Made by a program: the position numbers and the translations under genes. A stretch of DNA of 64,000 nucleotides from Geosiphon pyriformis uo1 (taxonomy: Eukaryota > Fungi > Glomeromycota): assembly GCA_016748015.1 (NCBI GenBank), contig JAAOMT010000226.1, positions 1,222,604 through 1,286,603 of the forward strand, in the 5' to 3' direction. Below are positions 1 to 32,590 of the stretch, piece by piece. Position 1 is the first letter of the stretch. Each line of letters opens with the position of its first letter. Below the pieces are notes generated by a model. The model was not told the origin of the DNA, searched no databases, and saw only the letters and a program-made list of their open reading frames with translations.

Positions 1-3000
1 CTTAATAAAAAATTTCAAGTTTTTGGGTTTTTCAGTTTAAATTTGTATTGGTTTTAAAAAATTAATTGTTTTTAACAAGAGTTTAATATTGGAATACATT
101 TATAATAAAGATTTTAATTAAAATAATAATTATATTAATTATAAAAAAAAATTGTTAATTTTTTTTATAGAAGTTTTTTTTATTCTATTAGCAATAACAA
201 TTATTGTTTAAACTAATTTGTCAATATTTTATTTTAACTTTTACATCAATTAATAAATAATAATACTTTTAGTAAAATAAATTTTTCTTTGACTTTTACT
301 TCTATGTACATAATAATAATTGCTTTTTTGTTTAAAAATAATTGTATTACTAAGTAAAAATGGAAATTTATTGGCTTTAAATTCGAATAAAAATATATTT
401 AAAATATTGGTATTTTTAGTTATTTTGGTTAATAAAATTGTTATGTTATTGTAAAAAAATTTTTGCTATTGTATTGTAATTCTATTTTTTAAGAATACAA
501 TTTGGTAAAAATTTTGATTTTCTGATATTGTAAGATAACTGAATTAAATATAGAAGTGTTTTGATAATTGTTAATTATTATTATAAAACACTAATTAATT
601 GTTAAAACCAATTTGGTTATTATTTAATTAAAAACAATTTTGCAGTATAAATTAATTGAATTGGATTAATTTTTTTGTTAATAATTAATAATTTAATATT
701 AAAGATAACTGATATTGTTGTTATTAAAATTGGAATAAAACATATTAATAGTAATTAAACTAAAGTCTTAAAAAATAATAAGTAAATAGTAATAGTAATA
801 AATAATATAATTGCTACTATTAGAGAAAATAATATTGATTATTCTGTTTTTGTTAATTTTTTGGCATTTTTCGACAATTATATTACCAGTGTTCTAAAAT
901 TCCACAATAATAACAATTTAAATTTGGTAATTGATTGTTGTTAAATAATAGTAAAATATTATTTAAATTTTATTATTATAATAGTTAATACTTTTGTTGT
1001 TAATTAACAAATTTGGTTTAGTTTGTTTCTTTTATAGTTATTTTATAATTTTTAATATATTAAATAATAGTAGTTAAATTTGCTAAAATATATTCTTAAT
1101 AAATTTATTTTTAAGTTTAATAATAAATTAATTCAAAATTTAAATATTAAAATAATAAGTATTTGTTTTTAATTGGCAAATTTTTTTGAAAAGTTTGTTG
1201 AATTTTTCAATATAAGCTATAACAGATTTAGATAATTTTTGTTTAATGTTTTAAAAATAATTGCAGAAAATAATTAAGATATTGTTATTTGTAAATTGCT
1301 TAAAAAAGGCAATTTTAAAGATTTGTTAATCTGTAAAAAAATTTTCTAAGTTTTTAAATTATTTGTTTACAATTTTTTAAAAAGATAAGAAATTATTTTT
1401 AATATTTTTGCTGTAGTTTATTCATTTGTATTTTTTGTTTTGATAACTTAATTAAACTATTCTTAAAAACTAATTTCAATGTTTTTTTCAAAAAAATCAG
1501 AAATTTTTGTAATATAAGTAGTGACTATTTTTTTGTTATTTTTTTTATTGTCTGTAATTTTTCTTTATTTTTATTTTTTTTCTAATAAATTCAGAAATGT
1601 TTTTTTTGTTGGCTAAAATTTCTAAATATTTATTTTAATTATCTGTTAAATAATTAAGAAAATTAATATTTGTATAAATTAGCTTTAACTATTAAATAAG
1701 ATTTTTTGTAAAGTTTTTTAGTCTTGAAAATTAATTAAGAAATAAATTAGATGTTTGTATTTAAACAAATAAATTTGAAAATAGAATAATTAAAAATAAT
1801 AATTTAATATTTGTTCTTTATTTAAATGTTTATAAGTATTTAGTTGTTATTTTTAGTTAAATTAGTCTGGTATTTCTTTTTTGTTTTTTTTTGCTACTTG
1901 TTTCTAGTTTTAATTTTAGTTCAAAAATAAATTGTAAATTAGCAAAATATTTTTTTTACAAAACTTAATCATATTATAATCAAGTTTTTAGAAATAAGTA
2001 ATACAAGTATTTGTATTAATAGTTTTTAATTTTGTGTTTAAATAATAAATTAAGTTTTTAAGAAAATTTTGTTTAACTTTTATAATATTGTAATTTCTAA
2101 AGAAATAATTATTAATTTGGTTTTTAATATATAAAAAAAGTGTTTTTTTAATAATTATAATTCTATCTTGTATTTCAAAGTATTATTTACAGTAAGTATA
2201 AATTAATTAATAATACTTTAAAGTTATTATATTAATATATAATTATTATTTTAATATAATTATTGCTATGTTATTTTTAAAAAAGCACCAAATATTATCA
2301 GAAATTTTTCTATTTTTTTTGATATTATTAATATTATTTTGCTATTAATAAAAGCTAATAAATCTTCAATAAGTTAATTTATCTTTCAAAATATTTTTCT
2401 ATACTTTAAACTATATATACTGTTAAGTTTATAATAAAATAGTTAATTTTATGCCAATTATTTTTATATAATTACTTTATAGTAAAAGTTAACTCTTTTA
2501 CAAAAAAAATTTATCTATAAGCTCTTTAAATAATATGTAGTTATTTTGTTATAAAGGTCAACTTTTCTACAAAAAATTTTAATTATAAACTACTTTAATA
2601 TTATAAATAAAATAAAAATAAAAAATGTATTTAAAGAATTATTTTAGATTCAAATCTAAAAATTACTAACAATTTATTGAAATTAGTAGTTAATTAATTT
2701 CAAAATATTAATATAAAATAATTAATTTTAAAATAATAATAATTAAAAAATTGTGTTTTTAAAATAAGTTTTATTAAAATAATTTATAATAACAAATTGT
2801 TAATTTTAAGAAAAATTAATTCTAATTAAAATACATTTTTTGAAAAAAAAAAGTTTTTTTTATATAATTTGTTGTAATACTATTTTATGATCTAGTATTT
2901 TTTTTTCTAATATTTTAATAAACCAAAGATATATTTTATTAAACTATAAGTTATTTTTATAAACTATAAATTATTTTGGTAAATTGTTAAATATTTTGTT

Positions 3001-3230
3001 GAATTTTTAAATATTTCAGCAAATTTTGAATATTATATAGTTTGGTATATTATATAATCTAATTATTACAATTTGGTTATATTTGTATTTTATACAAATT
3101 AAGTTATTAATTGAATAATAATTTGGATAATTTGATAAGATAATAAATAATAAATTAAAATAATAATATCTGTTAATTACTAATAAAATAATTTTATGCT
3201 AATTAATAATTCAAATTTTTACTGGTAATA
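1..3230 (-). mobile_element. Hyper-decayed Ty3/Gypsy family-B copy (protease, gag, PBS, 5' LTR); continues left of the window
   Basis: Colinear with family B at 56300-59685, e.g. 10-60 matches 56310-56360 and 1140-1215 matches 57560-57640. PBS remnant AGCACCAAA at 2284-2292 lies next to the decayed LTR end TATTATCAGA. Confidence 0.8.
2293..3230 (-). repeat. Decayed family-B LTR
   Basis: Termini TATTATCAGA...ACTGGTAATA are transition-decayed TGTTACCAGA...ACTGGTAACA; colinear with 58715-59685. Confidence 0.8.
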
Positions 3231-7340: not shown

Positions 7341-8002
7341 TGTTACGGGATAGTTTTCTTGTTATATTTAATTGCTGATATCCCACTTTAATTGCAATCA
7401 GTCTTCCGTGAGTTCCTCAATTTTATTTGTGTGATAATGTCACTGTTACACTGAAAGCTTTCTTTTTACTATTGCGATGTAAGTTATTCTTTAATTCTTG
7501 ATTGTTGTGTGTGTTTATGTACTCCTTCTCAGAGACTGAACTGAAATCTACCCACTGTCTGGGGTCTTCTCTGAGGCTATCCTTGCAATTGCCTGATGTG
7601 TTTTTCTAATTTAGAAACACAGAATGTTAATGGTCTTTAGCACTTTTCTAATTCTCACAATAAAGCTTTTATCAATTAGTAACAATGTGAATAATCTTGA
7701 TCAAGGATTATTCTTCCAAGGGATTCAGTTGATGAATGATAGTTTCATTCAATAAATAATACAAGTAAGTTTCTTAATACTTTGGGTTGTGATAGTTCCG
7801 TTTTAAATATTTTTTTTCATTTCTTTTTGATTTTTAAAGGTTTCTTGGGATATTTAATTTGAAAATATGATTTAAAGTGGAGTTTGTTGGATAAAATTGG
7901 ATCTGTTGCTTGATAAGTTATGATTTTTATTACTTGATTGATTATTTCCCAATATTAAAACTACTGTATATATACATGTTTGTAGTTCTATGAGAAAATA
8001 CT
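7341..8002 (-). repeat. Family A 3' LTR (inner end lost in N-gap)
   Basis: Near-identical to 16980-17580; PPT remnant CTTGAAAGGAG (minus strand) at 8023-8033. Confidence 0.9.
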
Positions 8003-8028
8003 NNNNNNNNNNNNNNNNNNNNCTCCTT

Positions 8029-9727
8029 TCAAGATTGAGCTCCATCGAAATCGAAGTTAATTTCTTCATTAAATTCTAAGTTACTATAGTGGTTCAATAC
8101 TGTGTTATTAATTTGTTGTTGTAATTCTTGAAATTACGAGTTGGTAAGTCATCTAATATTGTTGGTTGTTATTATGTTCATAGTTGGGTCCAACAATAAT
8201 TTGTGACAGTTTTCAAATGCTTTGAAAATTCTGTAAACTGTTTTTGAATGGAATGTAGTGTTGGTTTTTCCAATGAAAGGTTCTAATAGTTGGATAGTTG
8301 TTTTGTCAAACACTCTAGTTGAGTCTTTTGAGTATAATGTTTATATGTTCAAGTGCTTTCCTAGTTGATAATAACAGTAATTAATTGGAAATTTTGTTTT
8401 CAAGTTGCTAAATGTGTCTGGTGTTAATTCACTTATTTCTATTTCTTCCATTATTAATGTATTGCCCAATGCTATCTCTAATTTTTCAATAACTTTGCTA
8501 ATAAATTTGTTGTTATATTTGGCAATATTATATGGTTTGAAATTATGTTTTTTTCTTGTTTTTGGATTTTCTNNNNNNNNNNNNNNNNNNNNCCATTCTT
8601 TTTCATGTTTGTTACTAATTTTCGCCAGTGATTCGCATAATGTGCGATTAAATCTTTCAACTAATCCATTTGTTTGAGGGTGGTATGGTGATGACAGTGG
8701 TCGCTTGATTCCAAATTTTTGGCTAAGTTCTTTTAAGGTGCTGTTTATGAAGTGTGTGCCTTGATCTGATAGCAATTCTTGTGGACATCCATGTCAGCAA
8801 ATTAAGTCTTCATGTACAAATTGAGCTACGGAAATAGCATCAGCTGTTTTAATAGCTCTAGCTTCTGGCCATTTGGTGAGATAGTCCATGGTTACTGTAA
8901 TATAATGGTTGTTTCTTGTTGTTATTGGTAAGAGTCCAACTAAATCAATTCTGATTCTGTCAAATGGCTGTCCAACTTTTATTGGTCTTAATAATTCCGT
9001 TGTTTTTGCTTCTCTTCTTCATTGGCATGGATCACAATTTCTTATGTATTGGATTATGTCTGAACTCATTTTTGGCCAATAGTAACGGCTAGTTGCACGT
9101 TGGATGGTTGCTGTTTTTCCAAAGTGGCCTGAATGAATATCTGAGTGCATGTTAAATAAGATAGTTTCTTTTTCATCCGTGGTTATAACTCTTAATGGAT
9201 TATCTGGATTTTGTCGATTCCAGTAATAAAGTATGTGATTTTGGATGAAATAGTGTTTTGCTAATTTTTGGAGCTTAATTAGCTCTTTTACTGGCATTTC
9301 TTCGTCTATTTGTAGTGTTTCCAAGTATTGGCTGAGGTTTTTATAAAGGTGGTTGTTCATTGTTGTTGTGGCAGGTGGGTTGGTGATTTTTTTTTTTTTT
9401 TTTNNNNNNNNNNNNNNNNNNNNTGAAAGGTTCTAATAGTTGGATAGTTGTTTTGTCAAACACTCTAGTTGAGTCTTTTGAGTATAATGTATTGCCCAAT
9501 GCTATCTCTAATTTTTCAATAACTTTGCTAATAAATTTGTTGTTATATTTGGCAATATTATATGGTTTGAAATTATGTTTTTTTCTTGTTTTTGGATTTT
9601 CTATTGTTTTTTTTATGTATGTTATTTTGGAGCTATTAACTGTGATTTTTAGATCGGATTTTAATTGTTGTAAGCTTTCAACTAATTGTTGAGTTATATT
9701 GTTGATGTTTTCTGGAATAAGTATCAT
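8029..9727 (-). pseudogene. Family A ORF3 of unknown function between IN and PPT (pieced together across gaps)
   Basis: MILIPENINNITQQLVESL..YYQLGKHL..KTVYRIFKAFENC..IR*LTNS*FQELQQQI..FDFDGAQS*; homologous to 50785-51438. Confidence 0.7.
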
Positions 9728-11016
9728 TGTTTTAATTTTGACTGTTATTTTGGAATCTTTTGCATGCGTTTTTATGGTTGTTAAATCATTTTTGCTGTGA
9801 TCTAAGATTAATTATCTTTTTGAATAATGTTCAATTAAAACTATTGGTTCTAAATCTCGTGGAATTTGTTCTGGTAGAATTAAAGATAATTGTGTTCCAA
9901 TTCTGGGTGTTTTTGTTGTTATTACTGGTTTACTGTAATAGAATTTCAGCCAGTTACCATGTGCTGCTTTTCTTAATATTTTATCATCTAGTCTTAGCTT
10001 GTATGCTCCATTTCCAAGTATTTTGTGAATATAAAATGGTCCATTTCACTTGTGATCAAATTTTCCACTCCACTGTTTTTCCATTTTTGTACGATGCAAC
10101 AATACTTTATCTCCAATTTTGTAGCTAATTATATTATTTGGTAACTGGTTATCATGTCTCACTTTTTGTTGTTCTTGTGATTGTTCAATATTTTGTGCTG
10201 CTTTTCTTCTTTTGTTTTCTAAAGTTCCCATTAATTCGTATGTTCTTCTAAGTAGTGTTTCCTGGAATGTTGCTTCCGTGATAGTGTCACTTGGATAAGT
10301 TGGAATAGTAAGTTCAACAGGTAATGTGGCTTTTCTTCTATAAACTAGTTCAAACAGTGTGAATTGTGTAATATCTTGTTTTACTGTTCTATATACTAGT
10401 AGTACTGCTGGTATGAACAAATCCCATTCTTTTTCATGTTTGTTACTAATTTTCGCCAGTGATTCGCATAATGTGCGATTAAATCTTTCAACTAATCCAT
10501 TTGTTTGAGGGTGGTATGGTGATGACAGTGGTCGCTTGATTCCAAATTTTTGGCTAAGTTCTTTTAAGGTGCTGTTTATGAAGTGTGTGCCTTGATCTGA
10601 TAGCAATTCTTGTGGACATCCATGTCAGCAAATTAAGTCTTCATGTACNNNNNNNNNNNNNNNNNNNNGTTACCATGTGCTGCTTTTCTTAATATTTTAT
10701 CATCTAGTCTTAGCTTGTATGCTCCATTTCCAAGTATTTTGTGAATATAAAATGGTCCATCCCACTTGTGATCAAATTTTCCACTCCACTGTTTTTCCAT
10801 TTTTGTACGATGCAACAATACTTTATCTCCAATTTTGTAGCTAATTATATTATTTGGTAACTGGTTATCATGTCTCATTTTTTGTTGTTCTTGTGATTGT
10901 TCAATATTTTGTGCTGCTTTTCTTCTTTTGTTTTTTAAAGTTTTTATTAATTCATATGTTTTTCTAAGTAGTGTTTCCAAGTATTGGCTGAGGTTTTTAT
11001 AAAGGTGGTTGTTCAT
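8593..11016 (-). pseudogene. Family A integrase (HHCC, DDE, GPF module; no chromodomain), in duplicated fragments between N-gaps
   Basis: HSDIHSGHFG..CDPCQ; IDLVG; SDQGTHF; PYHPQTNGLVERFNRTL; KWDGPFYI. Confidence 0.88.
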
Positions 11017-11057
11017 TGTTGTTGTGGCAGGTGGGTTGGTGATTTTTTTTTTTTTTT

Positions 11058-14000
11058 TTATGTGTGTCTCATTCTTGACAAACAGTCGGCATTAGCATTT
11101 TTGGTACTTTCTTTGTATTTGATAATATAATCGTATGGTGCTAACGTTTGTGACCATTTAGCATATTTTCTTTTTAGCGCTTTCTTGTTATTTAACCAGA
11201 CCAGACCTCTATAATCTGTTGTAATCTCAAAGGGTTGGTACCATAAATATGTGTCAAAGTGAACACAACTCCAGACTACTGCTAAGCATTCAAGTTCATG
11301 TGCTGCATAGTTTTGTTCTGCCGTACTGAGACTTCTGCTGGCATAAGCAATTACACGTTCTCTTCCATTATTATCTTTTTGTGACAGAATGGCTCCAAGT
11401 CCAGTTCCAGAGGCATCTGTGGCCAAAATGAATTTTTTGTTGAAATTCGGATAGATCATTATTGGTGATTCAATGAGCTTTTGTCTAAGGTACTCAAAAG
11501 CTTTTTGTTGTGCTTCAGTCCATTCAAACTTCACATTTTTAGATAGTAGGTAATTAAGGGGTTTGGCGATGTTTGAAAAGTTTTCTACAAAGTGGCGGTA
11601 GTAAAATGCGAGTCCTAAAAAGCTTCTAACTTCTGAAACGTTTCGAGGTACTGGAAAATTTTTCACTTTGTCTATTTTTGATGGATCTGGTTTTATTCCA
11701 TCTTTTTTAACTATGTGTCCTAAAAATGCTAGCTCATTTTTCCCAAAAAAACATTTTTCTAGATTTAGTTTAAGTCCAGCGTGTCTCAATCTCTCAAAAA
11801 CTTGTTGTAAATGTTGGAGATGATCCGTGAATTTTGACGAGAAAACATTTGTATCATCCAAGTAGACAACAACGGATTGCCACAGGATTCTGGAGTAAAT
11901 TACATCCATTAGTTTTTGGAATGTCGTGGGAGCATTTGTTAATCCAAATGGCATTACATTGAACTCATAATTGTCATTTTGTGTTGTAAATGCTGTTTTA
12001 TGCCTGTCCTTTGGGTCCATTTCCATTTCTTGAAAATATATCAGAGTATTTTAAAATTAATGCTTTTAATTGTCACTGTTGGTCAGGATCCATTGTTCCA
12101 ATGTTTAATTTGGCCAATTCTTCTGGTGTAAATTGATAGCATTCTACCAGTTGTTGCCAATTTATTGAAGTGAGTTCACAGTAGAGGACAATTTCTGGGA
12201 AATTTAGAATTTCTTGTGGTATTGACGCATTTTCTAGCTCCGTTCCGAGGTATCCAATGATGGTATCTTCCAGAATGTAGATGGATTCTTCTGTGGTGTT
12301 TGCGATAGAAATTTTTATCCATTGAGCTTTATCAGCTGGAATAAAAAGGTTAGTAAGTCCTATGAGAAACTGTTGGCAAGTTTCTGGGTAGGGCTCAAAT
12401 ATTAGGTCTTTTTCTTTAATTGTCCTTTTTATTCTTATTTCTGATTTTCCATATGGTAGGAGCGTGATGGACTGCTCATTTTTAATTACTTCGCCTTTTT
12501 CCTCTATTGTTTCAGTGAAATTCGCTTCAATTCCTTTTCCTGTCGATCCAAAACCAAAAGTTCCTCTCGTTGTTTGTAACAATTCCTCACGATTTTCCAC
12601 TGGCACAAATTTCCCAATTTTTACCAATGATAGAAAAATTGCTTGTGCAATCTTTTTCTTAGATTTAATGATATAAGGCTTTTCTGAATTGTTCTGTAGC
12701 AAAACCATCAAATTTCTAGTGTATCCAGAGTCAATTACTCCTCCTTGAACGCTTATTCCTTTTTTCGCGAGGCTTGATCGTGACACCATTTGAACCATTA
12801 TTCCTGGCGGAATTTCAACTGCTATTTTTAGGTCAATTTTGGTGATGCTCCTGGGTGGTAACGTTGTGGATTGGTCTTCCGGATAACATAAATCGAATCC
12901 GGCGTCAGTTGGATGGGCTCTTTCAGGTATTATTCCTAAGTGTCTGTTGTCAAAGTATCGGATGTCAGTCACCTGTTCTAGGTCGGTATAGGCTACAAAT
13001 TTTTCTGACTCGGGACTGTCAGGTGAGTTTTGTTGATTTATTGATTGATTTTGAGATTGCTGATTCTCAATTTCCATTTTTCTTTCTAAGTTTCTTTCGT
13101 CTTGACACTCTTCATAGCACTGATTTTGGCACAGGATGAGACAGTTTTCGCAGAGGTAAGTGTTGATTTAGGCGAGGTATTGTTCTTGCTCTTGTCGAGT
13201 GGGGCATAGTTGTTGGTAGTAGTCCTGAAATTTGTCCACTGGGTCGAACATGTTGTAGCTGGCGACTTCGTTGGCTACTTCAGCTGACTCTTTCCAACGT
13301 CGTATTTCTTCGGTGGTTCCTCCTCTTACTTTGGCTTGTGCGGTGTTGTACAACTTGTCCTCGTCGTGTGGGTAGTGCTGTAGTCTTTTTAACGCTCTGT
13401 TGAATGCTGCTTCGAATGGTGTTCCTCCTCTTATCCAGTCACAGATGAGGATCATGTATTGGCAAGTTGCATCACACGTTCCTCCTCTGCCTGGTAAGTT
13501 GTTCCAGTCGCACCCTCTTGGTAACGGTTCTCCACAAGCGAAGCACGGTTCCTCGTCCCATTTTCCGTGTCTTTCTGGGTAACCGTATTTTTCTTTGTTA
13601 CAATGGTTACAATAGTAGTGGGTGGAGTTTCTTGGGTCTTCGTCTGGTGCGCTGCACGCAGTCATAGACGAGAGTTTTTTCTTGCAAACTGAGCATTTTA
13701 GCTTTGGTCTGTGTCGCTGGTGGTTTCTTCGTGAACTTACCTGGTTCCATTTGGATTTTTCTTTGCTGGTCCATGTTGGTACGGCTGGTAGTCCTGTTCT
13801 TTGGTCATCAGCCCAAGAGAGCTGATAGGTTTCGATGGCTGGTAGTGCTGGATTTTCTTCAAATTCGAAGGTAGGTCTTTGGTTGGTGCTGGGTTTTTGG
13901 AAGTGGCCACAGGTGGCTGGAATTTTGGCCTGGTGGCCATTATAATTGATCAGAAGCTCTTGGGTGGTCCAGTCTAGGGTGGTGTTGGCTTTTGTTAGCC

Positions 14001-16897
14001 AGTCATTTCCTACTAATGCTTGATATTGTGTAGCGTCCATTACTAATACTTTTGTAGGTATTACTATGCTGTTAATTTTGAAAGGGAATGAGTCGATTTT
14101 GCCATGAGACAGCTTTGTACTTCCATTGGCTGTTATGATTTGGGACGTTACGGCACGATCAACTTTAAAACCCAGTTGGTTTACTAGTTGAAGCGTTACG
14201 ATGCTTCCAGTGGATCTGCTGTCTAAGATAAGTTTGATTGGGGTATTGTTTACAGTGGCTTCCGTATACATAGCAGTGATTGGGCGTTTTTTGTCCAATG
14301 CTGCTCCACTGAACATAGCCTCGTTTTCCTCTAATTCAAAAGGAAAAATAGCTGCAAGGCTGCTATCTTCGATGGCAACTGTTGGTGGTATTGTCTGGCT
14401 CAATTTGGAGGAATTCTTGGTTCTGTTTATGTTTCTACTGTCATTGTTTCTGATGATCAGGTTTTCCAGTATATTAAGGTAAGTTTGTTGATAATTTTGG
14501 TAGTTTGGATTGGTTTGCTGATTGGTTCCGGTGCAGTTTGGATTCCTCTGGACCAACGCGTTCTGGTTCCATATGGGCTGATTTCGGGCCTTGGGACGCC
14601 AATTCGGGTTGGCTATCATGGGCTGTTGCTGGTAAGCTCCTTGATTTTGATATGTGGTGGAATATTGGCATGGTATTGGTGTGTACTGGTTTCTGGGCAT
14701 TTGGAGTGGTGCGTAGTAATTATTTTCGCGTGCTTCCTGCATCATTTGCATTTGACATTGACTAATCAAATGTCCTACGCATTTGCAAAAATGGCAGGCA
14801 TGTGTTTCTGTTCTGAATTCCTGGCGCGACAAGTGATTATTTTAACTGTTGCTGACTTCCTGGCTGCATTTTTGGGGTGGTTGGTATGTATTTTTTCTCG
14901 GATCCGGGATGAAGTAACTTTCTATTTCTTAGAGAGTTCCTCCCCTAATCGCATTACTCTTTTCTCTAATGTTTCTGTCTTATTTTCCTCTATTATCATG
15001 TTAACCATTTGACTATGGTTAGCTTCTTTCTCAGCCGATTCAAGAGCTCTGGTGAGCGTAACGGCTTCTGGTAAGGAATTAGGGTGGGCAGAGCGTACTC
15101 TTCCTAAAATGCTGCTTTTTAATCCTCTAATAAACTGATTTAAAACCTGAGGATCAGTGTAGTATCCTTGTTCAATTGCTTCAATCTAACGGCAAATTTG
15201 ATTGAATCGAGCAAGGTATTGGGTAACAGTTTCACTGGTATTTTGCTTGATAGTATTGAATTCATTCTGTAGTTGGATTACAGCGTTTGGGTCACTAAAA
15301 TACTTCAGGAGTGCATTTTTAAATTTGGCGAAGCTTGTGGATTTTGTTTTCAGGCTTTGATACCACGAGTCGGCTGTGCCTTTCAGGAAGAAAGGTAATG
15401 TTTGAATTGCTCTTTGGTTGTTCCAGTTATTTGCCTGGATGGCTTTTTGTGCTTCTCTGAGCCATGTGTGCACGTCCGTTTCTTCTTCCTCTCCTAAGAA
15501 ATCTGTTAGTCTTGCAATGTATGGTGTGGTTATTTTGTTGCCATTTTCTGCTGGTGGGTTTATTGGTCTAAGAGGAGGTGAGATGATATTTCCTTGAGCG
15601 TTCCTAAAGGTGGCTTCCCTTATATCCGGTTCTTCCTCTTGATCACNNNNNNNNNNNNNNNNNNNNNNNNNNNNNNNNNNNNNNNNNNNNNNNNNNNNNN
15701 NNNNNNNNNNNNNNNNNNNNNNNNNNNNNNNNNNNNNNNNNNNNNNNNNNNNNNNNNNNNNNNNNNNNNNNNNNNNNNNNNNNNNNNNNNNNNNNNNNNN
15801 NNNNNNNNNNNNNNNNNNNNNNNNNNNNNNNNNNNNNNNNNNNNNNNNNNNNNNNNNNNNNNGCCTTTCAGGAAGAAAGGTAATGTTTGAATTGCTCTTT
15901 GGTTGTTCCAGTTATTTGCCTGGATGGCTTTTTGTGCTTCTCTGAGCCATGTGTGCACGTCCGTTTCTTCTTCCTCTCCTAAGAAATCTGTTAGTCTTGC
16001 AATGTATGGTGTGGTTATTTTGTTGCCATTTTCTGCTGGTGGGTTTATTGGTCTAAGAGGAGGTGAGATGATATTTCCTTGAGCGTTCCTAAAGGTGGCT
16101 TCCCTTATATCCGGTTCTTCCTCTTGATCACGAGTTTTTTGGTTTCTGGACTGGCTGCTTGTTCCAGTGACTGGTTTTGTAATTGTTTTTTTACTGGTCT
16201 CTTTTTCGGATTCCGATTCAGACTCCTCTTCATGGTTTTCAAACCCCATTCTAAATTTTGGCTGAAAAAGAGGGTTTTGGAATAGTGATGAATATCCTCC
16301 TGTAATTGGTATGTCTCCCCAGTTACATTGTTTAATTTTATCAATATAACTAGGAGTTCTTGGCGTTTGTGGAGTTGATGTTGATGATGATGCAGCTCCT
16401 AATGAAATTTGTATCTTATTTTCTGATGAAAAATGGTATAATTTATCTTCTGGTGAATAAATACGTTGTTTCTTTATTGATTGAGTGACAGTTTTCTTTG
16501 GTGTTTGAGCTGGTGTTCCTAGTTTTTGCTGGTTACTTTCCTGATTAGTTTTTAAATTTTCTTTGGTTTTGTTGGTGCATTCCCTAGTGTTTCCTGTGGA
16601 TATTGGAAAATTTTCGTTGATGTATTGCTCAATTTTTCAATAGATTTTGACAATAGTTGTGGCTATTACTGCTATTTCTTTTGTAGTGTATTGTGATAAT
16701 TCTCTATACAATCCAAGTTTTGCGTCATGTGGTTCTTCTTCCTTTCCTATATGATAATTTATTCTGGCATTGATATAATAAGTGAGGGCAGATTCTGCTG
16801 GACAACATCCTTCTGGTAATCCAAGATCACTTTGATTTTGTGTGTAAATAGCATGGCAGAATTCAAGAACAGTAAGATTAGGAGTTTTTGTCGCCAC
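11058..16897 (-). pseudogene. Family A gag-PR-Cys-rich-dUTPase-RT-RNaseH polyprotein, disrupted
   Basis: Gag (WLREAQKAIQANNW..FFLKGTADSWY; knuckle CHFCKCVGHLISQC), protease LILDSRSTGSIV, RT (KTAFTT..MPFGLTNAPTTFQ..YLDD), RNase H (LATDASG..ELECLAVVW..NANADCLSR). Disrupted by CAA/CAG/CGA-derived stops, a 1-nt frameshift near 14927 and a deletion near 12030. Confidence 0.9.
12538..12963 (-). pseudogene. Trimeric dUTPase domain within the family A polyprotein
   Basis: All five motifs: DAGFDL, SRSSLAKKG, GGVIDSGYT, KIAQAIF, RGTFGFGSTG. Confidence 0.92.
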
Positions 16898-16960
16898 TTT
16901 TGTCTTTTCCTTTTTAGCAATGAATTATTGCTAATTATTATTTTCTTTTTGATTTTCTTT

Positions 16961-16977
16961 CCTCGTAGGGTTCACCA
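16961..16977 (-). promoter_or_regulatory. Primer-binding site TGGTGAACCCTACGAGG (tRNA-Trp-like 3' end, tentative)
   Basis: Starts 2 nt after the LTR terminus. Its complement ends GGGUUCACCA, as in plant-type tRNA-Trp (from memory; primer identity not verified). Confidence 0.7.
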
Positions 16978-16979
16978 AA

Positions 16980-17784
16980 TGTTACGGGATGGTTTTCTTG
17001 TTATATTTAATTGCTGATATCTTGTTTTAATTGCAATCAGTCTTCCGTGAGTTCCTCAATTCTATTTGTGTGATAATGTCACTGTTACACTGAAGGCTTT
17101 CTTTTTACTGTTGCGATATAAGTTATTCTTTAATTCTTGATTGTTGTGTGTGTTTATGTACTCCTTCTCAGAGGCTGAACTGAAATCTACCCACTGTCTG
17201 GGGTTTTCTCTGAGGCTATCCTTGCAATTGCCTGATGTGTTTCTCTAATCTAGAAACACAGAATGTTAATGGTCTTTAGCGCTTTTCTAATTCTCACAAT
17301 AAAGCTTTTATCAATTAGTAACAATGTGAATAATCTTGATCAAGGATTATTCTTCCAAGGGATTCANNNNNNNNNNNNNNNNNNNNTTTTTTTTCATTTC
17401 TTTTTGATTTTTAAAGGTTTCTTGGGATATTTAATTTGAAAATATGATTTAAAGTGGAGTTTGTTGGATAAAATTGGATCTGTTGCTTGATAAGTTATGA
17501 TTTTTATTACTTGATTGATTATTTCCCAATATTAAAACTACTGTATATATACATGTTTGTAGTTCTATGAGAAAATACTTTCTTTTTGATATTTCAACCT
17601 GGTATTTGCTGCTATCACCAGTTGGTGTTGACTGCTATTGTGAACTGGTGCTTGCCACTATCATGAGATGGTATTTGCTACTATGTTAATCATTACCTTT
17701 CTAAGATTATTACTGTGCTATATTATGATTGAATAGTTTGTATTATTTTTATGATTCTTTTTGCTAAATTCTTAAACCGTAACA
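16980..17784 (-). repeat. Family A 5' LTR
   Basis: TGTTACGG...CCGTAACA, adjacent to the PBS; contains an N-gap. Confidence 0.9.
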
Positions 17785-19499
17785 ACACTGACAATTAAGA
17801 GTCTTCCACCAAATATGGCACTTTTTAAGTGTACTAGTTTTGGCAACAGCAAGGTCTAAATCAGCTTGGGAGCCAAATGTAACTAGAGCAAAGCAGAGAC
17901 AACAACCAGAATCAAGAGACTGAGGAATGAAACAAGACTGGCCACCAACCTGAAAAATCATATTACTAATTTCAAAGACAGTACAGCCAAGAGGAAGGTT
18001 GACCAACTTGGCTTTAAATTTATCACAAGACAAAATAGTCTCATTTTGATTTACCAAGGGAAGAATTTTAACACTATCCCTGCCCACCAATACTGACCAA
18101 TGATTCAAAGCAGACATGGCAGAATCCAACTTTTCAAAATGAACCACTACATATTGCCAAATGCTAGCAGACTTCAGCACAACACAAGTAACCATACCAA
18201 AAACACTAAGAGCTGTCTTAATATCAGCAGCAGACACACCCAAAGGCACATCATGCAGCACAACAGCAGCAGAAGGGGATTCAAACTCAGAAACCACCAA
18301 AGACTTGGCAATTTTAAAAGTGACAAGACGAACAGAGCTTGTAAGTTCAACTAAAAATGCAACATCTAAAGAGATTTGAGAAGCAAATTCCACACAAAAA
18401 AGCTTCATATTGTCTTTTGAAACAGACTTAGCACCCAAAAAACCATGTACAAACTGAAAAACAGTCTTAATATGAGCCAATTTAATTTTAAAAGTAGCAC
18501 CAAGCACTAAAATGGAGGCCACCTATTTAGCAAACTTTTGACGACTAGTAATAGTTTCTCAAGCATCACCAGAAGTAGCACCAGAAACTAGAGAAGGAGA
18601 TGATTCAGTTTCCATTTGATTAGCCCAGTTCTCAAGAACAGATGAACCAACAGGAAGAGATTGTTTTCCATCTAAAACTGGTAATGATCTGCCAGAAGAC
18701 ACCATATTTGGCAATACAGCCAGTGGTTGATTTAAGCCCATCTTGGATAATGTACCAGATAATATTATGAAGATCTTATCTAAGATCTCATTGGGAACCA
18801 CAAAGGGGTTTGGTGTAAAAATAGCAGAGACAAGCAACTGCCCCCACTTTTCTGAACTTTTGGTCTTTTTGATCATTTTTTTGAAGAGATAGTGCTAGAA
18901 GCATCAGGTGTTAAATTTATAGAAAGAAAGACCAGCTTATTTACTAGTCTATTATTAAAAACTTTTGGGCTCTTAGTCGAGGTGGAGGCAACACTGGAAC
19001 TAATCCAGGTGTGTCTCTTTGAGGGAACTTTGACTGATGAGAAACCAGCCAAAGATGAGGAAATTGCTTCAGTGGCTACCAAAGACAGCTTATTACAATT
19101 ACTGGGTAGAGAAAAGACTTCTAAAATGTTCTGCCTAGTTGTTTCTACAATAGAGAAAGCTTCTCTGGTTGAAATTTTATTAGATATCTCAGGACAGATA
19201 TCAGATGCAGCTTTTTTACTCTTTGTTCTGATCATGGTTATAAAATTAAAGAGACAAAGAGTTTTTTTATTTTATTATATTTATTAAAAATATTAATATT
19301 TGAATTATTTAGATTATTAAATTCTATTATTTTAGATTTTAAACTTTTAATAATATTAAACAATAAATTTATTTTGATAAGTTAAAGAGTAAAGTTGTTA
19401 TATATACATAGTTTTATATTTTTTTTAACTAATTATAGTAATTAAACAAAGTAATAATTAATAAATAAATAATAAAAAATATATATTTTTTTAATTCTA

Positions 19500-19680
19500 T
19501 TAAACTCAAATAAGTTTGTGAATTTTAAACTAAATTTAGACTTATTAAAAAAATTTAACTTTAAACTTAAATCAAATTTACTTTTAAAAATTTAATTTAT
19601 TTTAGATTTAGTATATAATTTAAACCAAACTTAAACAATATTTAAAATTTGGTTTGATTTGGTTTATTAAATTTTTAATA
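19500..19680. repeat. Decayed AAACC(G/A)AAC-rich repeat resembling hAT/MITE subterminal sequence
   Basis: AAACCAAACTTAAAC / GGTTTGATTTGGTTT motifs similar to 48242-48420; no TIR or TSD resolved. Confidence 0.35.
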
Positions 19681-19689
19681 TAACAACAG

Positions 19690-20500
19690 ATTTAATTAAA
19701 GCAGCCAAATTAAAAATTTAAGATTTTAAAAAATTTAATTTAGACTTAATTATAAAACCAATAATAAAAACAACCAAAGAAATAACAAAAAAAAAAATAA
19801 AAAAAAGCCTTAATATATAACTTAAAATTATTAATAAGCTTAAAAAAAACTTAAAAATAAAAAATAAAAAATTTTACAATTTAAAACTAAATAATTTAAA
19901 CTTTAATATTTATAATAATATCAATATTTAAGAGTTTTTTACTAAATATAACACTTATAAAAATACCAATTTTTAAAATAACAAGATTTAAAATCTTTAA
20001 AAAATTAAATATTATAATAGCAAAATATTAATAATAATAAAAATAAATTAAAAAAATTTTATTCAAGATCTTATTTAAAATTATAAAAAAATTTAATATA
20101 ATAATAATAAATATAAATAATTATTGCTGTTTTTTAAAATTTTTGGTTTTTTTGGTTATTTGTAAAATAATAATAATAATAATAGTAATAAAAATAAAAA
20201 AGGTTAATTTATTAACTGACTTATTATTAAAAACTTTAAGACTTTTAAAAAAGATAAAAATAATACTAAAATTAATCTTAATATATTTTTTAAAAAAAAC
20301 TTTAACTGAAAAAAAACCATTAATTAAAAATAAAAAAATGTTTTAAAAACTGCTTTTAATACCTTATTACTATAATAAAAAAATTTTGTTTTATTAAAAC
20401 TTTATTAGTTATTATAAAAAAAATAATGTTTAAAACTTTTTATTCTTGTTTAAAAATTAAACTAATTAAATAAAAATTAAATTTTGTGTTGTTTTTAATA
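19690..20500 (-). mobile_element. Hyper-decayed copy of the 5' part of the ORF1-only element
   Basis: 20233-20318 aligns ungapped to 18961-19046, differing mostly by G->A/C->T. Boundaries approximate. Confidence 0.7.
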
Positions 20501-22098: not shown

Positions 22099-22185
22099 GC
22101 CCGGCTGGCGTAATCGGATAACGCACCAGACTTCTATGTTACTGACGATATCTGGGGATTGCGGGTTCGAGTCCCGCGTCGGGTA
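22099..22185 (+). tRNA. tRNA-Arg(UCU) with 13-nt intron (22137-22149)
   Basis: Acceptor stem GCCCGGC/GTCGGGT plus discriminator A; A-box TGGCGTAATCGG; anticodon arm CCAGA-CT-TCT-A-[intron]-A-TCTGG; T-arm GCGGG-TTCGAGT-CCCGC; T-runs downstream. Confidence 0.95.
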
Positions 22186-22366
22186 CAATTGAGAGATTTT
22201 AGAAGTTTTATTTTGAGTATCTTAAAAAGTTGACAAAACTGGCATCACCATTTTTAAGTTACTCAACGTAATACAATATAAATTCAATTCAAAAACACCC
22301 TCGTTTTTAAAGGTCGCGTTTAACACGTAAATATTACAAATATTTCAAACAACTTCTTGTATCGTA

Positions 22367-24240
22367 ATGAGTAATAATGGCGCTTCCGTGTCCTCTTCTG
22401 AGGTTAAAGCAACTTCAACCCATATAGGATCAGAAGAAAGCTCTAATACGCTTGATACTGCTCAAGTTAAAATCACTTCTACTCCCGAATTAAATGAGTC
22501 CGTCAAAGCTTCGATTCCCAATGACTCTTTCAATTCGGAAGAAACAGAAAATCTCCAACTATTGACTGAAGAAGGGAAGAAAGCCTATTCTAAACAGGAG
22601 TTCGAAATAGCAATTTACAAGTTCGGGGAAGCGTCGCGTCTCAGGTATGTAAAAGTAGCCTAACTTTTCTGATGTGTTCTCAGCTTGATTACATCATGAT
22701 AAATCTCAAACATAAATATTATTCCTTAAATCTCCTGAAATTCTCAAGTGAAAAACTTTATGGGGAACAGTCACCACAGTATGCTGATTCTTTGATTTAT
22801 TATGGTCGGGCATTATTCGAAAATGCAATAGCTCAAAGCTCCGTTCTAGGAAATAGTTTCCCCTCAAAAGATCCTGAAACGGATCACGGTAATCTAACTG
22901 GTTTTTAAATTTTAAGGATATCCATCTTTACTTTAATTTCTATTATACTAACACGGTATTACCCATAAAAATGAATAGTAGAAATTCCTTTAAATCCTCC
23001 ACCTGATAACAAGCGATTCTTTTTCGAAGGAGAACCAAACTTCGGTCAAGATGAAGGCGAGGAAATAGAAGTTATAGAAGCACAAGCCGAAGAAGCCGAT
23101 CTGGCTGATCAAGAGACATCTGATCAATTGGATGATTTATGCTATGCTTGGGAGGCACTTGATGCGGCTAGAGTTATTTATTCACGAATTGGCACCGAAG
23201 CAGCCAAAATAATTCTCGGTGACTTATATATAATATTGGGAGATATATCTCTTGAAAATGGTAACATTTATTCAACATATTGCTCTTTCTTGTTTACAAG
23301 TAACAAGTTCTTAACTTAAGTTAAAATACAGAATCGTTTGATAAGGCTGTCGTTGATTTCAAGGAGGGTTTGAATCTAAAACTGGCACAGCTGACAGAAG
23401 ATGATCGACAACTTGCTGAGGCATATCCTTTCTTGAAAAATATTCCTATTATATTACAAAATTCTAGAAACCACGTTTCTATTATGCTTGACTAATCGCA
23501 CTCATTATAAGCTGGCTTTAGGTTTAGAGCTAACCACACAAAACCAAACTCTTGCTGTTGAACATGTCCAAAAAGCGATGGAAGTTCTTAAAAAACATAA
23601 ACTCGTTTTAAATACTTCATTGATCAGTCTCCAAGAAGGAAATTTTGGCAAGGGCAAAGGCTTAGCAACGGCTATTGATGATCCCAACCGCATTGAAAAG
23701 GAATTAAAGGAGATTGACGGGTTCTTGCAAGATATGGAGGCTAAGGTCAAAGACATGGAATCTGGCCACACTTCAAGAAATATAGACGATCAAAACGCTG
23801 TATTCGATGCACTTTTGAAATCTGCCTTTACGACTAATGAAGATTCTTTAATCCAAACGTGTGAGCCCGAACTTGGGGCAAAATCCAAACATATATCTGT
23901 AAATGACCTGACTTCTCTCATTAAGCGGAAGAATTCAAAGATAACGCTCCCAGCTGAAAATAACTCTGAACCTGATTCGAATAACCCTGTTCCTATAATT
24001 GATAATAGTCTTAAACTTACAAATGATTCTGAGCCAGCTAAAAAACTTGAAACGACCCATGATAGCTTATTCTCAATAAAAGATGTTGATCAAGAAAATG
24101 CGCAGTCGTCAACAGTCAACCATCCTGTCACCAATAATACCGTCGATATTAATTCAAATCAAAACAATGAAGGCAAGAAAAGAAAATCAGACAGGGACCG
24201 GGATTACGGAGATAGTATCTCCAAAAAAAGTAGGATATAA
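22367..24240 (+). CDS. NASP: NASP/Sim3/Hif1-family SHNi-TPR histone H3-H4 chaperone; exons 22367-22644, 22749-22888, 22979-23260, 23332-23422, 23502-24240 (509 aa)
   Basis: Spliced frame is continuous (1530 nt). Motifs: EEGKKAYSKQEFEIAI, YYGRALFENAIAQSSVLG, acidic insert, DDLCYAWEALDAARVIY, LGDISLENESFDKAVVDF, RQLAEAHYKLALGLE, VNDLTSLIKRK, basic C-terminal NLS. Confidence 0.9.
23423..23501 (+). other. U12-type AT-AC minor intron (79 nt)
   Basis: 5' site ATATCCTTT; branch-like TGCTTGAC close to the terminal AC; removal gives GC|T CAT TAT AAG = conserved AEAHYKLAL. Confidence 0.9.
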
Positions 24241-27700: not shown

Positions 27701-30700
27701 ATCTTTGACCACAGACCCAATAGCAAAAATAAGAGACTGAATTGAGATATTCTTCAACACTAAAAAGTTGTTATCATGAAAAACATTAAATTTGCTGTAT
27801 ACTAAGAATATCCAATCAAAAAAAATCTTGAATAAGATTTTTTTAGCTGTCTTAATTAGTATAATAAGTCGAGTATTTGTCAAAACATTATTCTATTCAT
27901 AAGATTTGGAGATCATAGAAACTCATGCTCTTTTCTAAGGAACTAAAACTATATCCAAAATTAAACACAAATTTAGCAATCTTAAAAAATATTTTAACAT
28001 CTTATTATTACAATGTTTTTAAAGTTTATTAGATATCTCAAACAATACAATAGCCTTGTTATTTGACAAATCATCAACTATTAAAGCTAATTTTTCCAAA
28101 TCAATCTTACTTATTATATCAGAAAAGACACTATTATTAATATAATTCAAAAGCATATATTGGTAAGACCAAAGCTTAGATATTCTTGAAAACATCAATT
28201 ATTTTTTTGTCCATTCTTTTATAATTTCATCAATTTTGAGCTTTATCTCCTTAGATTCTACTATCAATTTATCTCTTATCACCAAGTAATCTAACACAAT
28301 TTTGCAAAAAAGTTATTTTAAAATACTCTTTATTATTCTCTTTTTGTCAAAACAGAAAATTTTCATATGTTGCTCAATTGCCTTCCTAATAGCTGTATTT
28401 TTAGATATTTTTAACTTATAATATTTGGATTGCTAATACTTCTTCTTAACCAGTAACAAATGTTTAATAATGTCAGTTGATCTTATATAATCTTGAATCA
28501 TATTGGCCATCTTAGATGCCTTAATATTATTAACTGACAACTAAACATTAACAAGATGTTTAAACTTCAACAAATTACCAGAACATTATTTTTTATAATC
28601 TTGGCTATAAGCAGTTCTAACTTAAAAAATTTTAATAATAATTTGTTTTTTGCACAATCATATTTACTATACCAATATTTAGAGAACACTACATTAGCAG
28701 ATTGTATTATAGTTTCTTTCAACACATTTCATATTATATCCAAATTACTATAATATTCTGTTTTCTTGAATACATTAAACTCTGTTAATAATCTATTAAA
28801 AGTGTGTTTTCTAAATTTCACCTATTTGATGTTATTAGTATCTTTAATCTTAAACTTCTATCAATTTTAATTAACTTATTTATAGATATTATTAAAACAA
28901 ACATTTAAAAAACCATCCAGACCAATTAAAACTGAGACTATTTTATAATTAGTATTAAAAAATTTTGACACAATATTAATCTTATAACTTGTAATTACAG
29001 ATGCCAGATTTTTATTTACAAATATAAAATGCAACACTTTTTTAACACTTTTGGAATTGCTTTAAGTAAGAGTTTTACCCAAAAAATGCTTATTAAAAAC
29101 ATTAACCAGATTCAAATCCAAATAAAACTTGAAACTTGTATTCTTTTTGAACTTATTCTTATTAAAATTCTTACTTAAAACCATTAAAAAGCTAGAATTA
29201 ACTGTTTTTGAGATAATAAAATTGATAATAGAAGTCTGATTAAACTGTACATTAGTAGACCTTCCAATATATAAACCCAAAATTATAACCAAAAGCTTGT
29301 CTTTAAACAAGAGCCATATAGAAATTAAATAATCTAAAATCTTATTTATCTTAAAAACATAATAAACAAAAGAACTGTTCATAATTATAACAATGCTTAT
29401 ACCAAAAAAACCAACATCCAAACCAAAAGTAAAAATCCAAACTTCATTAAACTTATTTATAATTTATAGTCTAATGTTAGATTTTAATTTAGTTTATGTT
29501 ATAATCAAAATTATATTTTCTAATTCTATATGTCAATAAACAATATCTTTCTGTTTAGCAAGAACATTAAAACTCTAAACATTGTATGTAGCAATCTTCT
29601 AAACCAAATTTGTTATTGAGAAAAATAATATTCTGACCCCAAACAAGATTGTTAACTTTGGCTAAAAGATCTATAATCATATTTAAAAAACTTATTAAGT
29701 TGTCTCCCAATTTAAAAACTATTAAAAAATCTAAAGACACTGCTTTTATATCAGTTTTACTACAAGTGAATAGATTTGAACCCTTACTTATTACTATATT
29801 TGTCTTTTGATTCTGTGACAAAAAGATTACTAATGGCTAATATTCAAGACTAGACTGGAAAACTATTGGTCTAAGTATATCTAATCTCTTAGCCAGCTTG
29901 TTGACTTGCTTTGTAAGACTAACAAAACTGCATTTAAGAGCAGCAAATCTATTGTTTACATTCAAAAAAACCAGCAAGAGTGGTTTAGCATCCAAAAATA
30001 AACCAATACTAAAAAAAACCAAAGATACTACATGAGAAATGGAATCATTAACAATCTGTATTTAAGTTTTTCCACCAAATAAAATGAGATAAGTAATTAG
30101 TGCCTGCTTCTTTTTATATATGTTTGCCAGATAGATTTAATCTTGAAAGGTAACCAACTATTTACTGTGACTGCTCAAATTTCTATCTATTGAATATATA
30201 CTAAAAACATAATCAAAATAAGTGCACTGAGCACAGTAGACCAAAAAAAGACCAGTTCTAGTGCAAATTCACATTCTTAAAAACTGGCATAGAATTAATA
30301 GCAGCCTTTTTAGAAGCCTTATCAGCAAAACAAATTATAGCACATTTATTATGCACATATGAATTTAAATTACAGCCAATAAAACAAGTTTTTTTATCAT
30401 ATAATTTTAGCAAATTAGAAAAATTATAAGCAGTGTTACCAGTAGAATTTTAGCTATTAATTAGCATGAAATTATTCTTATAATTCCTATCAGTAATTAA
30501 AATGTTAATATCAATTCAAATTATCACTTATTATTTAATCAATTTATCACATATTACGATTCAATTAATAATCCAATTAGTACAACAGAAAGTAAGATGA
30601 TCAAATTACACAATACTCTGAACTTTGTAATATTCAAAAATTCGCCAAAATTTATAGAAATTCGCCGAAATTATGAATAGTTCATCCAAATTAATCAATA

Positions 30701-32590
30701 GTTCAGCAAAATAACTTGTAGTTCATCAAAATGTATTTTTAGTTTGCCGAAATTTGAGCAAAGAGAAGAAGTGCAAGTTCATAGACTAGTACTACAACAA
30801 GTTGTATAAAAGAAGAGTTTTTCTCTTCAAGAAAATGTATCTTACTTTAGATTTATCATTTAGAACCATTCCTATACACAAAAAAAGAAATAAATATCAA
30901 ATAATTCGAAAAACCAAATTCTTTAATTATTGCACTTGGAAAATTCTCAAAACCCAATTAACATTTTGAAATTGATTAGCTACTAATTTCAGTAAAACTG
31001 TTAGTGACTCTAGGCCTGGATAGAAAACGTTTCTCTTGACAGAATTCAATTTCTTTTACATTTCTTTTACTTTTCTTTTATTTTCTTATTATAATAATTA
31101 AGATAGCCTACAGATAAGATTTCTGTAGAAGAGTTGACTTTCACAACAAAGTAACTACACATTTTTAGTGAACTTCCAGATGAGCAATTCCTGAGAAAGA
31201 GTTGACATTTACTATAACATAACTACATAAAGTAACTGGCAAGGAATTGGTCATTCCACCTATAAGCCCAGCAGTTCAAATTATAAAAGATAATTTGAAG
31301 ATAAATTCAGTTACTAGAGGTTCAACTACTTCAAGCAAATGTGAATTTGCAACCAACAGACATTTACAACATTCAAGAAAAGAGACCAAAAACCTCTGGT
31401 AACAGCAGTAATACCAATTGACAAAGTATATAGCAAAGTCTAATAAAGATTTTTAGATACCCATGACTGTTTATTATTGATTATCAAAGCCACACACACA
31501 GAATTTTTTTCCATAAAAACTGACCAGTTGAAAACAATTGAGCTAACAACATCTAATAATTTAAATTCAACTAGAATCTTTTGCCAAAAACCAATTAGCT
31601 GTATTTTGATTGAAATAATATTGCCAAATTTAAAAAAGACTAATTCTACTGCCAATTTGAAGAAATTTACAGAGATTTCCTTGATAATAATCTTTTGCTG
31701 TATAGTTGTTTGGTTTTTTAATGTTATTATTAACCAGGATTTTCTTACTAACTGCCAATTTTTTTGTCTTTTTCAAACTCAATTCAGATGTAAAAAAAAA
31801 ATTTGATTATTTCAGAAAGTTTTGAGAAAGTAAAGACTTTTACAAAACCATCCACATAATAAAAATTTTTTTTTACAGCAATTAACTTATTATTATTAGT
31901 TTTGTTGAACACAGCAAACAGCTTAACATCTAATACAAATGATTTAACAGACTCAAAGTTTTACTTTTCCAAAACATGTAACTTAACCAATAGCAACTGC
32001 TTAGAACCAACAAACTTAAAAGATAAAAACACTAAACTATCATCATTATCATTCATATTAACAAATGAAAGTGTCTTTGAAAAATGACCCAATACATATG
32101 TTTAAATATGAATTTTTTTTAATGTAGTTTTGTTTATATTCTTATTACTTACCAAAGTATCTGAATTTGCATAACTTGTTTCCTTAGCATCTGTGTTTTT
32201 CATATTTTCAACATCTGAAAAACCACTAATACTACTTATAACACTATTAACATTGCTTTTTCAGGACACCACTAGCTTAATACCAGCTCCAATAATATTT
32301 TTTAAACTTAAAGGACCAGCAAATGAGTTAATTATACTATTAATTACAAACTTCCTTTAGTTTTTTATAAGATGTACTGCAAAAGTAGACACTTTTTACA
32401 CATTTTTTTTGGCACTTAGACAAATCTCCAAACCAGTTGAACCAAAACCAAAACCATTAGCAAACATGTTTACTGGTTTTATTATAACAAAAAAGGTTGT
32501 ATATGAAAAAATAACTAAAAAAAACAAAGAAAAAAAGAAGAAAAAAAAACTAGTTCTTTAATAAAGCTTTTATTCTCATTATGACCAGGA
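24795..32590 (-). mobile_element. Full-length decayed LINE (ORF1; ORF2 with APE endonuclease, RT, RNase H), split by a family-B solo LTR
   Basis: ORF1 RRM-like FFKFGNIISIKIQLIGFWQKILVEF; endonuclease LGLY..VLSKNFN (decayed GDFN); RT LIILIKTAKKI..FVDNTIW; RNase H IYTDNLL..AKLQAI..VKRHSGI; shared 3' tail at ~24800-24930. Ends approximate. Confidence 0.85.
30434..31404 (+). mobile_element. Family-B solo LTR (971 bp)
   Basis: TGTTACCAG...CTGGTAACA with perfect TSD GCAG/GCAG; reverse-complement homolog of 58715-59685; removal restores the LINE ORF1 frame. Confidence 0.95.

Follow-up and report, generated by a model that had tools for sequence, protein, structure and literature searches.

Transposable element (TE) copies of Geosiphon pyriformis lose cytosine to thymine on both strands and in two tiers, CpG cytosines going at about 8 times the rate of the rest. 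The footprint is real and amounts to a repeat hypermutation that is RIP-like in outcome yet lacks the CpA preference of canonical RIP; a link to methylation is its likely cause. Specifically, we lean towards dense CpG and non-CpG 5-methylcytosine (5mC) on repeats, likely set by DNMT1/DNMT5 plus a DIM-2-type enzyme and deaminating gradually. An earlier note on this DNA had described RIP-like, repeat-restricted and largely context-independent hypermutation, and had proposed either repeat-directed deamination or a non-CpG methylation defence; the methylation branch of that proposal is the reading favoured here.

Features of the window

The window, a stretch of 64,000 nucleotides, consists of nested Ty3/gypsy and LINE-like copies surrounding one tRNA gene and one host gene. 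The features used in the analysis are as follows.

1003..3230, minus strand: old copy of the same family as the middle-aged element, comprising an internal part and LTR 2293-3230; GC 0.128, no CpG
7341..17784, minus strand: young Ty3/gypsy element nested in a LINE-like copy, with protease, dUTPase, RT-RNaseH and integrase ORFs
12900..15600, minus strand: gag-protease stretch of the young element, used for the multi-copy spectrum
18764..19096, minus strand: 5' region of a putative LINE-like ORF1, less-decayed copy; GC 0.384, CpG o/e 0.08
20047..20370, minus strand: heavily decayed copy of the same putative LINE-like region, holding 20233-20318; GC 0.108, no CpG
22099..22186, plus strand: tRNA gene, CpG-rich, at the left edge of the CpG-keeping island
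22367..24240, plus strand: NASP/SHNi-TPR, single-copy host gene of five exons, the unmutated control
30434..31404, plus strand: solo LTR of the middle-aged element's family, used as outgroup; TSD GCAG/GCAG at 30430-30433/31405-31408
49780..59685, minus strand: middle-aged Ty3/gypsy element with LTRs 49780-50750 and 58715-59685

The five-exon NASP model gives an open frame of 509 aa that agrees with G. pyriformis protein P0003 at 506/523 positions, the sole difference being the reading of one AT-AC intron; the next-best matches are from Ambispora (48-53%). NASP thereby places the DNA in Geosiphon (Glomeromycotina), and the supposition of a host outside Dikarya was right. The intron concerned is intron 4 (23423-23501), whose splicing restores a conserved helix and whose donor we take, by its motif, to be U12-type. 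Judged from the sequence, the public Geosiphon and Ambispora NASP protein models appear to misread it. The tRNA gene was left without an assigned anticodon by ARAGORN and by eye is likely Arg-TCT with a short intron.

An RT search placed the gypsy element among AMF-type gypsy elements, with named matches in Rhizophagus and Dentiscutata (48-53%). A metagenome scan with the gag-protease ORF returned 59 pattern matches, 0 of them confirmed, and found no relative. As assembled, the young element is broken by six N gaps and contains local duplications that are 100% identical, so that close copies have probably been collapsed into a mosaic there. Its TSD is ACGC/ACAC (7337-7340/17785-17788) and that of the middle-aged element CCAG/CCAG (49776-49779/59686-59689); these and the GCAG/GCAG of the solo LTR are all compatible with an intact or decayed central CpG. 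A second mismatched TSD that had been put forward, ACGA/ATAA, was not located by motif search.

Divergence between homologous copies

A hand count over the 86-bp ungapped alignment of 18961-19046 with 20233-20318 had started the inquiry, and our recount agrees with it exactly: 22 G>A and 7 C>T make 29 forward changes, beside 0 reverse changes, 6 transversions and 1 CpG in the less-decayed copy (18961-19046). The pair reflects true homology rather than coincidence. Reduced to purines and pyrimidines, its two sequences mismatch at 6 positions, against 24 for the runner-up among 127,828 ungapped placements, and the pair sits within a longer homology (18764-19096 with 20047-20370) whose alignment score of 395.5 compares with 52 +/- 5 (maximum 66.5) for 30 shuffles. 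This longer alignment holds 94 forward transitions, 7 reverse transitions and 26 transversions; 88/116 C/G sites have changed by transition in the decayed copy, and 7/179 A/T sites show the reverse. In the less-decayed copy CpG is already lost and most other cytosines are retained. A weak RRM_1 match (E 0.001) in the adjoining ORF suggests that the region is LINE-like. The LINE-like copy that hosts the young gypsy element has a CpG o/e of 0.06-0.22 and 32-37% GC.

Decay is staged across copies. The three LTR decay stages reported earlier do coexist, and 49780-50750 adds a fourth copy; the four have GC contents of 0.275, 0.263, 0.252 and 0.119. CpG o/e falls from 0.61 in the young gypsy interior to 0.10 in the middle-aged interior and 0 in old copies, a series that fits gradual decay, and the host elements are more decayed than the elements inserted in them. 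The old copy has had 346 of its 560 C/G sites altered by transition. Stops in decayed copies, which had been said to derive from Q, R and W codons, indeed lie opposite such codons in 34/68 aligned cases (6 stops facing gaps being left out), against a background of 12% (p=6e-14).

The LTRs of the middle-aged element have kept CpG better (o/e 0.31-0.40, 11 sites) than its interior (0.10, 17 sites; p=0.0025). Given comparable starting CpG contents, such survival would be expected if promoter CpGs were partly unmethylated, and would be the opposite of what homology counting predicts. The surviving CpGs of LTRs 49780-50750, 58715-59685 and 30434-31404 are grouped in a region of short repeated TTCG/GCCGAAA motifs, possibly a protein-bound, unmethylated promoter element.

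Sister LTRs

Since sister LTRs are identical at insertion, they offer the cleanest test of the spectrum. Between 49782-50750 and 58717-59685 there are 85 transitions and 2 transversions in 950 columns, a ratio that rejects 4:1 (p=1e-6) and 10:1 (p=0.012), and the young pair (7341-7727 and 16980-17366) differs by 14 transitions and 0 transversions in 385 columns. When 84 of the middle-aged differences were polarised by the solo LTR, 53 were C>T/G>A, 20 were apparent reversals, 10 were unresolved and 1 was A>T. The outgroup is itself ~16-19% mutated; by our own arithmetic, parallel hits in it would yield ~14-16 of the 20 apparent reversals, and a few may be genuine.

Both strands were hit at like rates in each sister LTR (31/165 and 17/111 in one, 19/165 and 18/111 in the other), the two LTRs carry similar numbers of hits (48 vs 37, p 0.28), and strand runs of C and G hits were found in neither, their order being random (p 0.58, 0.37). 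With the GC state taken as ancestral, the changes fall at CA 26/208, CC 19/90, CG 10/40 and CT 30/214. The earlier note had named transitions confined to ancestral CpG as a finding that would refute it, and they are not so confined: CpT or CpC is the context of 49/85 sister-LTR changes and of 17/29 changes between the copies of the 86-bp alignment, and CpG that of 10/85 sister-LTR changes.

Spectrum across copies of the young element

Public contigs were aligned to the gag-protease stretch. The largest run (X1; 7,433 contigs), possibly the source of the window DNA itself and hence not independent, gave 278 places of C>T change and 304 of G>A, besides 100 of T>C, 59 of A>G and 35 of transversion; these figures are rough, places being counted at 1% share. 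A second run of the same sample (X2) gave 3 contigs and one of another sample (X3) gave 2; all are spliced at GT..AG joints and presumably represent RNA, although the X2 contigs are labelled 'DNA?' and the X3 contigs 'RNA? (probably DNA)'. The window copy has A/T for G/C at 77 places relative to an X2 contig, with 2 reverse changes and 0 transversions, and at 73 places relative to an X3 contig, with 1 reverse change and 2 transversions.

Context rates in the young copy come from the 39 forward changes among the rows listed (40 of 779; 1 reverse row was set aside), which appear to exhaust the interior changes of five pieces that total 1,038 sites. Relative to the GC-rich, transcript-like reference contig, which may be a single expressed copy or follow the majority among several, 28/122 CpG cytosines have changed compared with 11/374 others, an ~8-fold difference (p=1e-10), with 0 transversions in the 1,038 sites. 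The earlier surmise that CpG goes first is therefore borne out, with 34/61 CpG pairs still surviving. Non-CpG losses are CA 3/135, CC 4/115 and CT 4/124. Across copies, when every CpG is counted as hit, C>T is found at 430/1,011 other C/G sites and 15 transversions at 1,538 A/T sites, a difference of ~50-fold, or ~45-fold by our own correction, which leaves out ~60 sites where mutation in the window copy has already taken the CpG partner. In places, non-CpG C>T numbers at least about 370-430, against 35 for transversions.

Changes in the young copy are skewed by strand (29/217 C vs 10/279 G, p=7e-5; at CpG 22 vs 6, p=0.004). Selection is not the cause of this skew, since 24 of the 32 listed changes in the gag-protease ORF are non-synonymous; antisense transcription or a burst may be. 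The X2 and X3 contigs are spliced across 12900-15600 on the plus strand, antisense to gag-pol, with 8 joints, 5 of which have GT..AG and typical donors. No long open frame was found in this transcript in the window letters, the longest being 110 aa by approximate exon boundaries. An antisense RNA of several exons could be a source of siRNA or help to direct methylation.

Sequence context

The description 'largely context-independent' has to be given up for the process as a whole, in view of the ~8-fold faster CpG tier and a mild TpC preference at non-CpG sites; it fits the second phase only. The semblance of context independence came solely from the prior loss of CpG in the less-decayed copy (o/e 0.08), and any context-free reading of pairs of decayed copies is biased since the reference copy is already without CpG. 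In six older pairs none of the 16 trinucleotides is spared, with non-CpG rates from 0.48 (ACA) to 0.74 (TCT) and dinucleotide rates of CA 0.56, CC 0.55 and CT 0.63. Among sites with unchanged neighbours in five pairs, TCW (234/304) exceeds ACW (164/284) by a rate ratio of 1.7-fold, and in the most decayed DNA TpC is short (o/e 0.49) and GpC rich (o/e 2.06). No CpA preference was seen, either in the young copy (CA 3/135 vs CG 28/122) or in the older pairs.

The host gene as control

NASP keeps its CpGs, as had been claimed, with 51 against 59 expected (CDS o/e 0.86). Its introns have 27.0% GC (93/344 nt) and its 4-fold sites 36.7% (76/207), whereas decayed repeats have 10-13% GC and no CpG; compared with a decayed repeat (35/324), the differences are significant for introns (p=8e-8) and 4-fold sites (p=2e-12). 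At the edges of the gene island, CpG o/e falls from 0.86 to 0 within ~100 bp. The equilibrium GC predicted by the repeat spectrum, by our own arithmetic, is ~6-9%, near the lowest GC of the repeats and well under that of the introns. Decay limited to repeats fits these figures, and the claim of repeat restriction holds up by composition, for one host gene; the single-copy comparison is one of base composition only.

Explanations of the two-tier loss

We propose that repeats are densely methylated and that methylcytosine turns to thymine, the change being fixed gradually over time. The fast tier would reflect CpG methylation by DNMT1/DNMT5-type maintenance enzymes, and the slow tier lower-level methylation of CpA, CpC and CpT by a chromatin-directed DIM-2-type enzyme; copies would sink toward ~10% GC. 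The deamination could be spontaneous or enzyme-assisted, and could take place in mitosis or in a cryptic sexual stage. The background is in keeping with dense methylation of fungal repeats. In R. irregularis, of an order other than Geosiphon's, 32.5-49.5% of cytosines are reported as methylated (PMC8298701), a level that in an AT-rich genome would exceed the capacity of CpG sites alone, and TEs are CG-methylated (10.1101/2021.03.30.436303). The AMF clade reportedly retains DNMT1, DNMT2, DNMT5, DIM-2 and RID (PMC8298701). In species with DNMT1/DNMT5 plus DIM-2, methylation is described as high at CG and low at non-CG sites (PMC7862722). Both CG and CHH sites bear 5mC in the TEs of Phycomyces (PMC11258239), Neurospora DIM-2 methylates non-CG sites with CpT preferred (PMC13297926), and Dim2 is the cause of a mitotic C>T mutation of repeats in Zymoseptoria (PMC8016269). 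Several points count against our explanation: the R. irregularis figures come from a different order, the Zymoseptoria Dim2 mutator is CpA-specific and spares CpG, a few of the sister-LTR reversals may be genuine, the single-copy control is the composition of one gene, and the strand skew of the young copy is not predicted by plain symmetric deamination, although a burst or a transcription-linked process might produce it.

A variant of RIP, in which RID-dependent, homology-triggered C>T mutation with relaxed context acts in a cryptic premeiotic stage atop ordinary CpG decay, seems to us unlikely. The transition:transversion counts of sister LTRs (85:2 and 14:0) are in the RIP range, one young copy shows strand skew, RID is reportedly kept in AMF (PMC8298701), and the composite RIP index exceeds 0 in 13/64 1-kb windows. 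Against this, CpA is not preferred, neither sister LTR has strand runs, the linked direct repeats of the LTRs are not harder hit at CpG than the interior, and only 1/64 1-kb windows passes strict RIP thresholds. Moreover, a multi-copy family (7,433 contigs aligned) with long ORFs and spliced transcripts persists, RIP signatures are reported as absent in G. margarita, and a screen of 1,239 genomes reportedly found them in Ascomycota only (PMC12543289). Editing of retroelement cDNA by an APOBEC-like enzyme during reverse transcription could account for the skew of young-copy changes to G>A on the gag-pol sense strand and for the mild TpC preference, but we give it very little credence: both strands are alike in sister LTRs and across copies (278 C>T and 304 G>A places), flanking host bases in the TSD are mutated too, decay grows after insertion, and CpG is the top target.

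Two further accounts dispense with non-CpG methylation. In one, 5mCpG deamination supplies the CpG tier and ordinary deamination or light damage, unrepaired in heterochromatin, the rest, with transversions kept low through loss of translesion polymerases. The near-flat non-CpG context with its 1.7x TpC excess suits this account, as does the reported loss of Rev1 in all Glomeromycotina (10.1101/2025.09.02.673565), which could lower transversions; the repair gap, however, must lift non-CpG C>T ~16-fold over T>C (11/374 vs 1/542, among rows listed), and we regard the account as rather improbable. Light damage at dipyrimidines would be additive at most, UV as sole cause being rejected on the heavy hitting of ApC (rates of 0.57-0.59) and the 1 adjacent double hit among 85 sister-LTR changes. 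The other account invokes a genome-wide GC-to-AT mutation bias and age, with genes kept GC-richer by selection or GC-biased gene conversion. AMF genomes are 27-28% GC overall (genome table of PMC12543289), the short NASP introns have 3 CpG against 5.8 expected, and the single-copy control consists of the base composition of one gene. Nevertheless, introns and 4-fold sites are far GC-richer than the decayed repeat though presumably older than any insertion, CpG o/e drops from 0.86 to 0 within ~100 bp of the gene edges, and the repeat spectrum has its equilibrium at ~6-9% GC, which together make general bias a poor candidate.

Relation to known systems

The term 'RIP-like' is apt for the outcome and inapt in the strict sense, given the missing CpA preference and the persistence of a transcribed multi-copy family with long frames. 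Geosiphon repeats share with RIP of Neurospora crassa and Pezizomycotina (PMC12543289, PMC13297926) both-strand C:G>T:A change with transversions near absent, AT-rich relics and nonsense codons from Q, R and W; they differ in lacking a CpA preference, losing CpG first, keeping intact transcribed multi-copy families and residing in a non-Dikarya host. The Zymoseptoria tritici Dim2 mutator (PMC8016269) is repeat-restricted, as the Geosiphon decay is by composition, and likewise dominated by C>T (there >95%); its tie to non-CG methylation and its independence of a sexual cycle may also be shared; C>T far above background at non-CG repeat cytosines, a Dim2-type feature, was found in Geosiphon repeats. 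However, >98% of the Z. tritici changes are reported at CpA with CpG spared, whereas in Geosiphon CpG is fastest and CpA, CpC and CpT are about equal, and the enzyme is putative. As in 5mCpG decay of methylated TEs (10.1101/2021.03.30.436303; PMC11258239), CpG disappears from repeats first, and entirely, and stays in genes, but in Geosiphon non-CpG cytosines are then lost at ~45-50x the transversion rate and repeats reach ~10% GC, so CpG decay alone is insufficient.

Outside Dikarya, RIP-like change has also been claimed in Entomophthorales (PMC11105155), from dinucleotide indices, whereas the Geosiphon spectrum was measured between copies and its context is not CpA. In other studies, RIP signatures were reportedly undetected in G. 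margarita and Mucoromycotina, RIP was unique to Ascomycota in the kingdom-wide screen of 1,239 genomes (PMC12543289), whose genome table has no Geosiphon row, and RIP-like signatures were absent in Pucciniomycotina (PMC12210899). Our literature search, which covered the Geosiphon genome papers incompletely, found no paper that describes RIP, or hypermutation of repeats, for Geosiphon or Archaeosporales.

Implications

LTR elements reportedly make up 41.2% of the G. pyriformis genome (PMC11952901). Ages read from LTR divergence or from TE landscapes in this genome would come out far too high, because nearly all divergence belongs to one mutation class. Indices based on CpA and k-mer screens would largely miss such a mutator, as the single 1-kb window of 64 passing strict thresholds illustrates. 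A bolder possibility, which we hold only tentatively, is that a RID- or DIM-2-catalysed repeat mutator with its own context rule (CpG ahead of all remaining cytosines, with a slight leaning to TpC) acted in Geosiphon and the AMF ancestor and represents an ancestral, pre-Dikarya form of RIP; if that were true, and the mutator premeiotic as RIP is, every decayed TE would testify to cryptic sex in a lineage that has long passed for asexual. AMF reportedly keep RID and DIM-2 without a known job (PMC8298701), and a non-CpG mutator in Geosiphon would offer them a candidate function together with a testable prediction of context.
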